Positions 977-62,027 of a stretch of 64,000 nucleotides of DNA are shown here, in pieces. The DNA comes from a virus. Taxonomy: Duplodnaviria; Heunggongvirae; Uroviricota; Caudoviricetes. The stretch lies in the IMG/VR virus record IMGVR_UViG_3300043105_000137. One strand, written 5' to 3'. Below the pieces are notes generated by a model. The model was not told the origin of the DNA, ran no database searches, and saw nothing but the letters and a program-made list of their open reading frames with translations. The position numbers and the translations under genes are program-made. Each line of letters opens with the position of its first letter. Position 1 is the stretch's first letter.

Positions 977-1061
977 GGAGAGTAAACTTTTGAGGTAAAA
1001 GGACGGTCTGCTAAACCGATTGTACGAGTAATCGTATGTGGTTCGTGTCCACTGCTCTCCG
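977..1061 (+). tRNA. tRNA-Ser (anticodon GCT), type II
   Basis: The acceptor stem is ggagagt/gctctcc and the anticodon loop cugcuaa. The variable arm is long. Confidence 0.7.
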
Positions 1062-1909: not shown

Positions 1910-2478
1910 AACCGAGGCTATCTGAAAGGCAATGGATGTGTGTTCTATTCGGACTCTTGGTGAACAAAGTCTGTAAAAAATCATCTTCTGGCAACCCACG
2001 ATGGTAAACAAGGAATTTGAGTTTTTATGAGATGAACAAAACTATAGGAGTACGTTGGTGTCAGCCATAATTTAGTTCACAAAATGAATGGAAAAGAAGG
2101 GGGCGAACCTTTGACTCCTACGGGAGTGGGGTGAGGGTGGAATGACCACCGGAGAAATAAGGTTCAGACCTTGGTTCACCTATTGGTAACAATAGGTCGG
2201 CCTCAAATGGTCTATACCGAATAAGGGGTGTCTTATAGTTGAAGGTATGTGGTCTCATATCAAGATATTTGAACACCTATCACATCTTGGGTTACTATTA
2301 CATGGCAGTACCCCATGATAGGACTAAGGTGTCAAAGGTATAGAAAATCCATTGGGGTTGGGTGCATGGGTGACTGTGTATCACAAGGTTCTCAGGTCTG
2401 TGTGTTTTGTCCCGCTGAGCCTCTCTAGCGTGTTCGAGAACGTTTCTATCAACCGGGCAGGTTATCTCCCATAAAGAC
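1910..2478 (+). ncRNA. Candidate structured non-coding RNA, class unknown
   Basis: About 570 nt contain no plausible + strand ORF. GC content is visibly higher than in the flanks and there are many local inverted repeats. The region ends in an intrinsic terminator. Confidence 0.3.
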
Positions 2479-2512
2479 TGGATTTAATTATCCGGTCTTT
2501 TTTTTGACGATT
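2479..2512 (+). terminator. Rho-independent terminator
   Basis: The stem CTGGAT/ATCCGG has one G-U pair and is followed by a run of eight T residues. Confidence 0.6.
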
Positions 2513-2588: not shown

Positions 2589-3062
2589 ATGGATAATAAA
2601 TTTATAAAGCTCACTTTTGATGACACGAGTATTTCCAAAAAGACTGTAGAAAATCGGACTATTGTATCGGTATGGTCTGGTTTCAAATTCACAAAACTGG
2701 AAGCTGAGTTGGAAAATCTTGGTTTGAAAACACTTCCTGAACCCATTGCAACAATCCTGACTAAGTATGGGTATAAGAGAGATTTCAAGAAGAATATTTG
2801 GAAAGCTAAGTCAACAGGTGTGGCAACTCTTTCTCCTGATGATGAGAACAATGATGTCACAGGTTATCGTATCGCAATGAGTCGAGCTAAACGTAAGGCA
2901 TATATCAAGGCGACTAATTGTCTTAGAGAAATTAGTGGAATTTTTGATGAAGTAAGTGACCTATTCTACTTTTCATCATATCGTCTTGGTCAGTTTGAGA
3001 TTGAAGAAACAGAAGCCATTGAAGATGTAATCGATCATGGTTATTCTGGTGGTAAAAAGTAA
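2589..3062 (+). CDS. Hypothetical protein
   Basis: The track ORF starts at 2523, but that start would place the conserved promoter motif inside the coding sequence. The start was therefore moved to the ATG at 2589 (MDNKFIKL...). Confidence 0.45.
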   Translation: MDNKFIKLTFDDTSISKKTVENRTIVSVWSGFKFTKLEAELENLGLKTLPEPIATILTKYGYKRDFKKNIWKAKSTGVATLSPDDENNDVTGYRIAMSRAKRKAYIKATNCLREISGIFDEVSDLFYFSSYRLGQFEIEETEAIEDVIDHGYSGGKK

Positions 3063-3081: not shown

Positions 3082-4224
3082 ATGCAGATATTAGAAAAAA
3101 CAGAGTTAGACTTTTCAGATGTTTTGATTAAGCCTCGTCGTTCCACTATCGCCAGTCGTAAAGATGCAGATATAACACGAGAGTATAAATTCAAATGGTG
3201 TCCTTATACGATTAAAGGAACTGGTATAATGCAGGCTAATATGGGTACAATCGGTAACTTTGATGTGACGAGGAAGATGTTAAAAGTTGGTTTGTTTGCC
3301 TGTCTGCATAAACACCATGAAGTTAATGACCTTATTGACTTCTTCAAGAGTTTGTCTGACGATGAACGAAAACGAACATTTATTTCTATTGGACTAAAAG
3401 ACAATGGTGTTGATAAACTGAAACAACTGAATGAAGAAGTTTTCAGTGGTAAAGACTATAGTATGTCCATTTGTATTGATGTCCCTAATGGTTATATTCC
3501 ACAGGTAAAACAACTGGTCATTGATATTCGTAAGGTATATCCTAATTGTCTTTTGATGGTTGGTAATGTTGTTACTGGTGATATTGTTGAAGACCTTATC
3601 CTTTCGGGAGCTGACATAATCAAAGCTGGAATTGGTGGTGGTGGACAATGTATCACGAGAAAACAAACTGGTGTAGGTCGCCCTCAATTATCAACTATCA
3701 TAGAATGTGCGGATGCGGCTCACCAAGTGGGGGGTATGTGTTGTTCTGATGGTGGAATTACTTGTCCGGGTGATATTGGTAAGGCTTTTGGAGCAGGTGC
3801 GGATTTTATCATGATTGGTAGTTTGTATGCTGGAACAACGGAAGCTGATGGAGAAATAGTTGAAAAGACATACCTCACAAATGAACGAACAACAGAGGTG
3901 GTTAATTATGTCATGGGTGTAGTTAATCATGAAAAAGTATATGAAACCAAAAAGTTCAAGTTGTTCTATGGTATGAGTTCATCACTGGCTCAGGAAAAAT
4001 TTGGTGATGGAAAACGTAAGTATCGAGCCAGTGAAGGCCGTGTTAGTTTGGTACCATATGTAGGTTCAGTTGATGATGTAAATGAGGAATTTCTTGGTGG
4101 ATTGAGAAGTACAATGACATATATAGGAGCAACAAAACTTAAAGATATACCTAAGTGTTGTGTGTTCTATAAAGTGAATAATCAGTTGAACCGTACATAT
4201 GAAGGTTCAACAATAGGATATTAA
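3082..4224 (+). CDS. guaC: GMP reductase (IMPDH/GuaC family)
   Basis: The N-terminus LDFSDVLIKPRRST, the GIGGGGQCITR motif and the segment CSDGGITCPGDIGKAFGAGADFIMIG all match GuaC signature regions. Confidence 0.8.
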   Translation: MQILEKTELDFSDVLIKPRRSTIASRKDADITREYKFKWCPYTIKGTGIMQANMGTIGNFDVTRKMLKVGLFACLHKHHEVNDLIDFFKSLSDDERKRTFISIGLKDNGVDKLKQLNEEVFSGKDYSMSICIDVPNGYIPQVKQLVIDIRKVYPNCLLMVGNVVTGDIVEDLILSGADIIKAGIGGGGQCITRKQTGVGRPQLSTIIECADAAHQVGGMCCSDGGITCPGDIGKAFGAGADFIMIGSLYAGTTEADGEIVEKTYLTNERTTEVVNYVMGVVNHEKVYETKKFKLFYGMSSSLAQEKFGDGKRKYRASEGRVSLVPYVGSVDDVNEEFLGGLRSTMTYIGATKLKDIPKCCVFYKVNNQLNRTYEGSTIGY

Positions 4225-4573: not shown

Positions 4574-4604
4574 GAGAGGGGTCGCATGACCTCTCTCTTT
4601 TTTG
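4574..4604 (+). terminator. Rho-independent terminator
   Basis: A GAGAGG...CCTCTC stem-loop is followed by TTTTTT. Confidence 0.55.
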
Positions 4605-36224: not shown

Positions 36225-36227
36225 TTT

Positions 36228-36292
36228 TTAACAAAGTTTTAGCACTTAAAATTTGGAGATGTTATAAAAAACCTGTAACTTTGTAGTGTAAA
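36228..36292 (+). promoter_or_regulatory. Class-1 promoter cassette, copy 1 of 3 in tandem
   Basis: The sequence is TTTTAACAAAGTTTTAGCACTTAAAATTTGG...TAacTTTGtagtgtaa. Confidence 0.6.
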
Positions 36293-36325
36293 ACAAAAAG
36301 AACATTGAAAAGATGATTGAAAAAA

Positions 36326-36394
36326 GATTTAACAAATTTTTAGCTCTTAAAATTTGGTCAAGTCAAAAAAATCAAGTATCTTTGTAGTGTAATT
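36326..36394 (+). promoter_or_regulatory. Class-1 promoter cassette, copy 2 of 3
   Basis: A near-identical cassette. Confidence 0.6.
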
Positions 36395-36423
36395 AAAAAC
36401 AACATTACACAAGATGATTGAAA

Positions 36424-36494
36424 AAAGATTTAACAAATTTTTAACACTTAAAATTTGGTCAGGTCGAAAAAATCAAGTATCTTTGTAATGTAAA
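36424..36494 (+). promoter_or_regulatory. Class-1 promoter cassette, copy 3 of 3, with the conserved leader
   Basis: The cassette plus the leader AAAACAAAAACAAAGTTTAACTCTCTAAA lie upstream of the ATG at 36531. Confidence 0.6.
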
Positions 36495-36530
36495 ACAAAA
36501 ACAAAGTTTAACTCTCTAAAACAAGAAACA

Positions 36531-37776: not shown

Positions 37777-37851
37777 GACTTCGTACGTCTCAGCTGGTAG
37801 AGCGTCTGGTTAAACACTGGAAGGTCGTGGGTTCGATCCCCACCGAAGTCA
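37777..37851 (+). tRNA. Second tRNA with the UUAAACA anticodon loop, with an irregular D-arm
   Basis: The acceptor stem gacttcg/cgaagtc pairs perfectly. The anticodon arm is identical to the one at 37380. The D-region carries 3 extra nt (tacgtctcagctggtagagc) and the T-arm is gtggg-ttcgatc-cccac. Confidence 0.45.
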
Positions 37852-40385: not shown

Positions 40386-40446
40386 AGTCCTCTAATTAAC
40401 TCCTACGACCATCCTTAATATCTTTTAACAGTAATACGAAATTATC

Positions 40447-60799: not shown

Positions 60800-61099
60800 T
60801 TTCCATCTGTGGTCTTTTCTTCGCACGACTTTTCGCCAAGTTTATGACCACCCTTATTTTGACCATCATTACATATGCTGACATAATCAGACCTTAAACT
60901 AATCATTACACAGTATGCTATTATTGTAAAATGTGCTAACCTAACTTTCTGAATATGTCACACAATCCCTTGGATTTCTTCTGAGGGATTGTTTTTTTGT
61001 ATTCTGACATTTTGTTACTATTTCCTGATTTTTACTTTCATTTTGACACCTCCTGAAGAAAAACTCAGGGGATTTTTTATAAGCATGTAAGTAAATCCC

Positions 61100-61830
61100 C
61101 TCTTTTACTTTCATTTTGTCATCTTAACCCAGTCCCCAGACTCAGCTGACCAGAACTCAACCCATATAACTGTCCATCCCCCTTCCTCAACTTAGCCCTC
61201 TTTACCATTCCTCTCCCTTTCCCTCACGATACGAATGACGAAACTACTACTCATCCACCCCCATATCTACCATACCGGATATATTAACCCCCAGATATAC
61301 ACCCCAGACTTCCAGATACCAGATTCCTCAACCCAGTAAATAACCCCCAGATACATATTAACCCTATTTCCTCTATTTTACCCTTTTTACTATACGAACG
61401 ATTTTACGATTTTTTCCATTTTTACCCCTTTTTTACTTAGCTAATTTTAAGACACATTTTTTCACTATTTTCCATGTTTTTCCCCTTTCTTACTTTTTAC
61501 CTCTTTTTACACTTTTTACCTCTTTTTTACTTAGCTTATTTTATTCCCCCTTTTTACCATATTTTACACTTTTTTGGAATTCTTGGAAATATGTGGAAAT
61601 CTGTGAAAACTACATTTCCGGCCTGTCCTGAGTTGGAGGGGTGGTTTTTCAAAGGAGTAAAATAAGCTAATTTCTGAGGGGGTAAAATAAGCTAATTTTG
61701 GGGTATTTTTAGGATATGTAAAAAAGACTAATTTTGGGGTATTTTTGGCCTATTTTGGGAGGGGGGTAAAATTAGCTAAAATTAGGGTTTTTTAGGGGGT
61801 ATTCAGAATCACTCAAAGAAGGCTAGAACT
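61100..61830. repeat. Repeat-rich, strand-skew-switching non-coding region: candidate replication origin or genome terminus
   Basis: The left part is C/T-rich with repeated AACCCCCAGATA(c/t)A units. At least 12 TTTTTAC(C) iterons follow. After about 61560 the + strand becomes G-rich, with repeated GTAAAATAAGCTAATTT and CTAATTTTGGGGTATTTTT units. Confidence 0.4.
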
Positions 61831-62027
61831 TGGCTCAGTAAATAAAAATAAATAAAAAATAAATTAAAATAAATTAAAAATAAATCGAAACAAATCTGAC
61901 AAAAATGAGTTAAAAAATTGGGTATATATTTTTGAATTTAATTAGCTCAGTATAAATAGATTACAAAAAAATTCGATAATAAAATATATAGATAAAAAAG
62001 ACATAATTTTACATTAATATTACAGAA

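Follow-up and report, generated by a model that had tools for sequence, protein, structure and literature searches.

The subject of this analysis is a stretch of DNA without protein genes that lies at the end of a large cluster of transfer RNA (tRNA) genes in a phage genome (Caudoviricetes; IMG/VR virus record IMGVR_UViG_3300043105_000137), of which 64,000 nucleotides (nt), called the window below, were analysed. A first-pass annotation, made by eye from the letters, had proposed that about 600 nt at this place, positions 1910-2512, encode one large structured non-coding RNA (ncRNA) that is stable and ends in an intrinsic terminator. Our analysis leads to a narrower reading, to which we assign a probability of roughly 55%: positions ~2091-2508 of the + strand would encode a previously undescribed, independently folding ncRNA of ~340-420 nt, stable and acting in trans, which is derived from the transcript of the tRNA cluster.

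The locus at the end of the tRNA cluster

The element begins directly 3' of tRNA-Ser(UGA), as had been annotated, and the tRNAs, the element, its terminator and the flanking genes all lie on the same (+) strand. Only one divergent copy was found, that of the sister lineage L025 (Logan SRR10148553), which is 93% identical and covers the sequence from 2091 onwards. The features of the locus are as follows.

1820-1906, + strand: tRNA-Ser(UGA) (anticodon tga), called by ARAGORN and by the Rfam tRNA model at 58 bits; the last canonical tRNA of the cluster
1907-2090, + strand: 5' spacer, GC content 0.38, no excess folding, not in the L025 lineage
2091-2429, + strand: folded core, a predicted RNAalifold consensus of 13 helices
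2430-2472, + strand: variable linker between core and terminator, with no fold in common with L025
2473-2508, + strand: intrinsic terminator, an 11-bp stem (2473-2500, four G-C pairs) with a 6-nt loop, followed by T8 (T-run to 2508)
2509-2588, + strand: conserved AT-rich spacer that precedes the 157-aa gene
2589-3062, + strand: gene for a protein of 157 amino acids (aa), the next credible gene after tRNA-Ser(UGA)

The cluster holds at least 17 tRNAs, as counted on contig L002, which adds 4.7 kb to the window on the upstream side; scattered among the tRNA genes there are HNH genes and a gene for a GH108 lysozyme. Downstream of the element, the 157-aa protein (36-41% identical to the equivalent gene product of related phages) is accompanied by genes for GMP reductase, thymidine kinase, a Dam-type methylase, a Thg1-like enzyme, a PIF1-type helicase and an RlaP-type nucleotidyltransferase, with the Thg1-like and RlaP-like RNA-repair genes 4-9 kb from the element. 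The same sequence is present on Logan contigs and on JGI contigs, the longest of which has 351,598 bp, from which we conclude that the window comes from an uncultivated jumbo phage.

Composition and folding divide the region in two

The elevated GC content reported for this region was borne out: it is 0.431 in 1907-2512, compared with 0.347 window-wide, and peaks at 0.469 in 2091-2472, the maximum over all 382-nt windows of the 64 kb (top 0.05%). Predicted folding is concentrated in the same interval. Taken whole, the 606 nt from 1907 to 2512 fold with a z-score of -1.6 relative to shuffled sequences, and the first 184 nt (1907-2090) fold no better than their shuffles (z = +0.36). The + strand of 2091-2472, in contrast, has a minimum free energy of -131.7 kcal/mol compared with -113.9 ± 5.5 kcal/mol for shuffles (z = -3.26), and none of 100 shuffles was as stable; on the opposite strand the value is weaker (-104.6 kcal/mol, z = -2.57). 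The region is made up of two parts, an unstructured 5' spacer and a folded core of ~380 nt with a terminator. The dense complementarity ascribed to all of it is found in 2091-2472 and is missing from 1907-2090, and the proposed size of ~600 nt does not hold for a single unit, about 380 nt plus terminator being the size that stands.

The predicted core consists of a single closing helix around one three-way and one four-way junction, with the following parts (from RNAalifold, using the window and L025).

2100-2105 / 2408-2413, + strand: H1, closing helix; G2105-U2408 is G-C in L025
2106-2111 / 2159-2164, + strand: H2, abuts H1 and encloses H3 and H4; two pairs flipped in L025
2114-2127, + strand: H3, hairpin with a UACG loop, inside H2
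2136-2150, + strand: H4, hairpin inside H2, re-registered in L025
2165-2177 (CAGACCU...) / 2388-2400, + strand: H5, abuts H2 and closes the four-way junction with H6, H7 and H12; its pairs are invariant in both lineages
2178-2197, + strand: H6, hairpin of 8 bp with a GUAA (GNRA) tetraloop, pair probability 0.98
2198-2218 / 2337-2360, + strand: H7, 20 bp, closes the domain 2198-2360
2226-2278, + strand: H8/H9, within H7
2282-2332, + strand: H10/H11, long arm within H7
2361-2382, + strand: H12, hairpin of 9 bp with a GUGA (GNRA) tetraloop, pair probability 0.99; a U-G pair is U-A in L025
2414-2429, + strand: H13, small hairpin 3' of the closing helix H1

Pair probabilities in the domain 2198-2360 are 0.85-0.97, and the H6, H7 and H12 arms of the four-way junction are contiguous, with linkers of zero length. 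Helices joined by zero-length linkers and capped by UNCG or GNRA loops are typical of real structured RNAs.

Several other structures were weighed by comparison with L025. A decayed tRNA or T-arm at 2158-2173 has a loop of 6 nt that is not T-loop-like, and L025 changes it together with 2106-2107, which favours H2. A potential G-quadruplex at 2122-2140 loses its third G-tract in L025. Long-range pairing between 2107-2119 and 2327-2339 is disfavoured because the A2107->U change is compensated within H2 and not there. A further closing helix, 1907-1913 with 2460-2466, appears in the single-sequence fold; we consider it doubtful, since L025 is without the 5' part and has the 3' partner changed.

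Divergence between the two lineages

Upstream of the position equivalent to 2091, L025 carries sequence unrelated to the window that was seen nowhere else among the compared sequences. For the part that is common to both, the four-fold degenerate sites of seven flanking genes served as the neutral yardstick, and 67 of 618 (10.8%) differ between the window and L025. Core positions 2091-2430 differ at 17 of 340 sites (5.0%; binomial P = 1e-4 compared with the four-fold sites), so the core changes at half the neutral rate. The linker (~2430-2472) has diverged by 21% in substitutions, together with two insertions in L025. The terminator is the same in both lineages except for the length of its T-run, and terminator plus AT-rich spacer (2473-2588) differ by 1.7%, compared with the neutral 10.8%. 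The spacer 2509-2588 probably holds a promoter or operator of the downstream genes; the word TTTGTTATGTTTA is found both in it and in a spacer at window position 40443.

None of the 15 core substitutions in L025 breaks a predicted helix. Four of them flip two adjacent pairs of H2, A2106-U2164 and A2107-U2163, both to U-A. Another four are one-sided changes, at 2218, 2295, 2376 and 2408, that retain a G-U or Watson-Crick pair (C2218->U and C2295->U retain G-U pairs), all four only if the + strand is the RNA. Through U2233->A and U2269->A a tandem U.U internal loop becomes two A-U pairs, and three substitutions with a 1-nt deletion re-register the H4 hairpin, at the price of one G-C pair and with the gain of a U-A pair. 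The remaining two fall at unpaired positions.

Since the consensus was derived from the same two sequences, circularity was controlled with random sets of substitutions that had the same spectrum. In single-sequence folding, the real substitution set leaves a minimum free energy of -121.9, compared with -110.2 ± 5.0 for random sets, 1% of which reach the real value. When random sets were passed through the alifold pipeline used for the real one, 0.75% reached the real consensus energy, and 2% yielded at least two compensatory pairs. When the partners are slid against each other the share of paired cells falls from 98.7% to 37-45%, as is expected of a structure derived from the same data. We regard the evidence for a selected RNA fold as good but not conclusive. 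The proposal of a structured, stable ncRNA is supported for 2091-2472 plus terminator, by the z-score, the half-neutral rate and the pair-preserving substitutions, and does not extend to the 5' 184 nt.

Coding potential and known RNA families

The longest open reading frame (ORF) on either strand of 1907-2512 is 52 aa (61 aa from stop to stop), and no frame opens across the region when TGA, TAG or TAA is read as sense, in agreement with the annotated lack of a credible ORF. An 851-aa concatenate of all six-frame open segments of at least 18 aa gave no match at E <= 10 among 5.8 billion proteins. Some relatives have a 264-aa gene at the same position, of which tblastn found no trace in the region. 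Furthermore, single-base insertions and deletions (indels) in L025 frameshift the two longest ORFs. A degraded or recoded protein gene, the former named in the first-pass annotation as what would speak against an RNA, was rejected on all of these grounds.

With Rfam 15 (4227 families) at gathering score, the only matches in the window are tRNAs. Relaxing the threshold to E <= 10, for 1.7 kb and also for 626 nt searched with the most permissive filters, gave matches inside the region only from small RNA (sRNA) models, which lie on the terminator hairpin. There was no covariance-model match at E <= 10 for ROOL, GOLLD and OLE, all three of which have profiles in Rfam, nor for raiA, RNase P, tmRNA, 6S, SRP RNA, HEARO or Y RNAs, and ARAGORN likewise reported no tmRNA. 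The earlier failure, by eye, to match RNase P, tmRNA, 6S and group I introns is thereby confirmed and extended to all 4227 families. A group I or group II intron was also rejected on the grounds that Rfam gave no match and that the two genes flanking the element, tRNA-Ser and the 157-aa gene, are both complete and uninterrupted. Judged from these comparisons, the sequence is non-coding and under constraint, with a predicted nested, multi-junction fold specific to the + strand.

Transcriptional context

The Rho-independent terminator is present, and its annotated position, 2479-2512, was slightly off. Its hairpin has an ensemble pair probability of 0.97. No other + strand terminator occurs between a point ~3.4 kb upstream of the window, where the preceding terminator lies, and position 4574.

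The window has 15 intergenic copies of a long promoter-like consensus (...TTAACAAATTTTTAGCACTTAAAATTTGG...GTAnCTTTGTAGTGTAA), which contains TTTG-N17-23-TAnnTTTG.

10072, 15662, 22900, 23002, 23393, 27034, 36252 and 36353, + strand: promoter-like copies
36454, 44193, 48880, 51773, 57930, 58819 and 58919, + strand: promoter-like copies

Three of them stand in tandem 101-nt units at 36227-36504. We take the consensus to be of the Bacteroidota -33 TTTG / -7 TAnnTTTG type. It points to a Bacteroidota host, an assignment made from promoter type only; a weak protein match to crAss-like Bacteroides phages is consistent with this host range.

No copy of TTTG-N17-23-TAnnTTTG occurs in positions 1-2600 or in the 4.7 kb that L002 adds upstream of the window. 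No promoter of the element's own was found, the conserved -33/-7 motif of the phage having no copy nearby. As no such promoter is near and the first strong terminator is that at 2473-2508, we infer that transcription of a tRNA-rich unit ends with the element as its last product.

Distribution of the element

Across the region, identity is at least 99.4% among all of some 20-odd contigs of this phage, and L041 and L042, members of the cluster, do not differ from the window in the RNA. In L041 (JGI 3300048661, 970 nt) the terminator stem and four T's run straight into window positions 2150-2226, with 2504 joined to 2150; this junction may reflect a chimeric assembly, a tandem duplication of 355 nt or a circular form. 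Another contig, L038 (JGI 3300043079), matches the window at 90% identity over its positions 1002-1112, across the end of the GH108 gene and tRNA-Ser, and ends where the tRNA ends; its lineage is more divergent than L025.

The neighbourhoods of GMP reductase genes 82, 81, 78, 77, 76 and 68% identical to that of the window were searched by nhmmer and with a covariance model of 2196-2384, and the element was detected in none. These phages also carry the 157-aa gene, thymidine kinase, Thg1, HNH and PIF1 helicase genes, and in one of them, L015, tRNA-Ser(UGA) is followed by 168 AT-rich bases and then the homologous 157-aa gene. It follows from the relatives without the element that it was either gained in one lineage or lost in all others. 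Neither blastn against 50,697 phage records nor protein-anchored searches of IMG/VR found a homolog. Exact and gapped DNA patterns run on IMG/VR gave three chance matches only, a scan of JGI metagenomes likewise three, in high-GC contigs, and a scan of GTDB genomes no homolog; these collection-wide scans detect near-identical words only, and distant homologs would escape them. On the sequences compared here, the putative RNA is that of one uncultivated jumbo phage species with Bacteroidota-type promoters.

Related jumbo phages have another non-coding element, directly after tRNA-Tyr in the tRNA array (L014 2165-2567 and L015 162-554). The two copies match each other by nhmmer at E = 8e-36, 15 of their 76 alifold pairs change on both sides, and Rfam gives no match at E <= 10. 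Like the window element, it is non-coding, occupies the same type of site in the same clade, has compensatory changes and matches no Rfam family. It differs in being followed by more tRNAs and not by a terminator, and in an unrelated sequence and covariance model. Kinship between the two was rejected, as the covariance model R2 misses the window element and R1 misses the relatives.

Other features of the window

Upstream of the element, a type-II tRNA-like gene at 978-1060 (+ strand) was missed by ARAGORN and matched by the Rfam tRNA model at 35.4 bits; with its GCU anticodon loop it is probably tRNA-Ser(GCU). Another tRNA that ARAGORN did not report (37777-37851, + strand; Rfam 39.8 bits) adjoins tRNA-Phe(aaa) and tRNA-Lys(ctt). 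The GMP reductase gene (3082-4224) is uninterrupted, and in many related phages (P0010, P0014, P0015, P0018, P0029 and others) the copy carries an intein (Hint domains; 508-534 aa). Additionally, positions 60800-62010 are free of ORFs and consist of a C-rich half followed by a G-rich half, mirrored around 61600, with repeats (CTTTTTACCT x3.6, GGGGTAAAATAAGCTAA-like x2 and an A/T-rich TAAATAAAAA array); in its sequence this region looks like a replication origin or genome terminus.

Comparison with known systems

ROOL and GOLLD are phage and prophage RNAs found near tRNA islands, with which they "could be co-transcribed" (PMC5737381, PMC12286853). The window element has the same kind of context: on a 352-kb phage contig it lies after tRNA-Ser, where a cluster of at least 17 tRNAs ends. 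It shares with ROOL, a large multi-junction ncRNA, the setting and strand logic, as well as an ornate, nested predicted fold with GNRA tetraloops. The differences are as plain. ROOL averages 581 nt, whereas the window core has ~340-380 nt with two main junctions plus inner ones; ROOL has three pseudoknots, whereas none is supported in the window element from two sequences; and ROOL spans several phyla, whereas the window element is known from one phage species. ROOL forms a nanocage, and homo-oligomeric cage assembly is a trait of both ROOL and GOLLD. GOLLD has a conserved 3' and a variable 5' part, and the window element likewise has a conserved 3' core and a 5' part that varies with lineage, but GOLLD exceeds 800 nt, is unrelated in sequence and fold and gave no covariance-model match, its conserved 3' domain included. 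The putative RNA is thus of a familiar kind, a large folded RNA in a phage tRNA island, with a sequence and predicted fold that match nothing described; new are the different phage group and a size smaller than that of ROOL or GOLLD.

Two smaller systems also bear comparison. The RNAs RNAC and RNAD of phage T4, ~120-140 nt long, have their genes in the tRNA region of T4 and are cut out of the precursors that also yield the tRNAs. This biogenesis is the one we would propose for the window element; the T4 RNAs are much smaller and come from an Escherichia phage. Known also as species 1 and 2, they are stable phage RNAs with a function that is still unknown (PMC9697503). The bacterial Y RNAs (YrlA, with Ro60/Rsr) are ncRNAs beside tRNA and RNA-repair genes, and the window phage carries Thg1-like and RlaP-like genes; Y RNAs are several times smaller, and the window element is without a T-loop or tRNA-like module. 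Among the ~25 window ORFs scanned (of 73 of at least 120 aa in total) there was no TROVE gene. On contig L026 (1653-3287) a 544-aa protein with a faint TROVE (Ro60-like) match is encoded directly after three tRNA genes, a setting typical of Y-RNA loci.

Alternative explanations

Several observations weigh against the trans-acting RNA proposed here and limit our confidence in it. The comparison spans two lineages only, the second covering just 2091 onwards. Covariation among homologous phages, named in the first-pass annotation as a check, was assessed across these two lineages: there are two compensatory pairs, four pair-preserving one-sided changes and no broken pair, but 132 of 500 built-in shuffles reach the observed covariation score, a control without power at two sequences. 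The randomisation tests reach only P ~0.01-0.02. Furthermore, the 5' end is not fixed to one position (1907 or near 2091). The element appears dispensable for the clade, given the relatives with GMP reductase 76-82% identical that are without it; and with no homolog elsewhere, it has, on present sequences, no status as a family beyond one phage species. Finally, the RNA is a prediction from DNA sequence, and its suggested link to tRNA and translation functions comes from its position.

A cis-acting role is unlikely in our estimation. In that case the fold and terminator would be a leader or attenuator that sets the share of tRNA-cluster transcription continuing into the 157-aa gene, GMP reductase, thymidine kinase and beyond. 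The arrangement is suggestive, as a structured domain stands immediately before an intrinsic terminator followed by nucleotide-metabolism genes on the same strand, and terminator and following spacer are very strongly conserved (1.7% divergence). Against this, no riboswitch, T-box or leader family in Rfam matches even at E <= 10, a search that would not recognise a leader for a new class of ligand. Inspection and ensemble probabilities revealed no antiterminator, the best upstream complements to either terminator arm being 5 nt, and the terminator hairpin is predicted to form at 0.97. The joint between core and terminator (2430-2472) is the least conserved part (21% plus indels), the opposite of what is expected of an expression platform; the core, at ~340 nt and 13 helices, far exceeds known aptamers in size; and relatives have the same downstream genes without the element. 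We give about the same low likelihood to a non-functional relic, that is, foreign or decayed DNA (gene, intron or tRNA debris) caught between tRNA-Ser and terminator, with incidental GC content and fold. The restriction to one phage species, the absence from the same site in relatives, the 5' border that differs between the two lineages, the decayed tRNAs that do occur in the tRNA arrays of these phages and the thin formal covariation support would all be natural for such debris. It would not be expected to change at half the neutral rate (P = 1e-4), nor to take 15 substitutions of which none breaks a predicted helix and at least 8 are pairwise coordinated or wobble-compatible, a result that ~1% of random substitution sets equal; moreover, tblastn, the six-frame search and Rfam found no protein or tRNA remnant, and the GC skew agrees with the phage's own coding strand.

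It is more improbable still that the element belongs to one of the large classes already known (ROOL, GOLLD, a group I/II intron remnant or an RNase P-like RNA) and has diverged so far that the covariance models missed it. ROOL has few conserved nucleotides, so that sequence pre-filters could miss distant members, the genomic setting is that of ROOL and GOLLD, and GOLLD too combines a conserved 3' part with a variable 5' part. Yet Rfam at E <= 10 with permissive filters on 626 nt returned only terminator-like sRNA matches, the core of ~340-380 nt is well below the ROOL average of 581 nt and the >800 nt of GOLLD, and the predicted fold is nested throughout, without a hint of the P3/P7-type pseudoknot by which group I introns are defined. 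Least probable of all, and in our view very much so, is an element that acts as DNA, such as a replication origin, packaging site or recombination hotspot. The region is free of ORFs, atypical in composition and adjoins an AT-rich spacer, and in L041 the terminator runs back into 2150, as it would in a tandem or circular form; but there are no iterons or meaningful direct repeats, the cumulative GC skew has no turning point here, and 60800-62010 is far more origin-like. The one-sided changes, moreover, keep their pairing as G-U on the + strand alone; on the opposite strand they would produce mismatches, and for duplex DNA such pairing is meaningless.

Proposed biogenesis and implications

For the trans-acting RNA that we favour, we propose the following pathway. 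The RNA would be made by read-through from the upstream tRNA-rich transcription unit, with no promoter of its own. Its 5' end would arise where tRNA 3'-end processing cuts behind tRNA-Ser, at 1906/1907, or through an additional cleavage near 2091, and its 3' end would be formed by termination at 2473-2508, where the hairpin may shield it from exonucleases. The mature RNA would then act in trans as a stable particle, either RNA-only or protein-bound, the likeliest field of action being the phage module for take-over of tRNA and translation.

A bolder extension, which we hold to be possible but well short of probable, is that it founds a new class of large phage RNAs that have their own activity, for example as ribozymes or as RNA particles that assemble by themselves, and serve this take-over. 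If so, several unrelated RNAs of this kind would have their reservoir in the tRNA arrays of Bacteroidota jumbo phages, the second element of the relatives being another.

Large, intricately folded RNAs are rare in bacteria and phages, and most of those known are ribozymes, scaffolds of ribonucleoproteins or, recently, RNA cages. An unrelated RNA in a ROOL/GOLLD-like setting, in another phage group, would suggest that it is the setting that selects for RNAs of this kind, and the second, unrelated conserved element in the tRNA arrays of the sister phages points the same way. The ~340-nt core would also provide an independent, smaller system in which to study the function of such RNAs.

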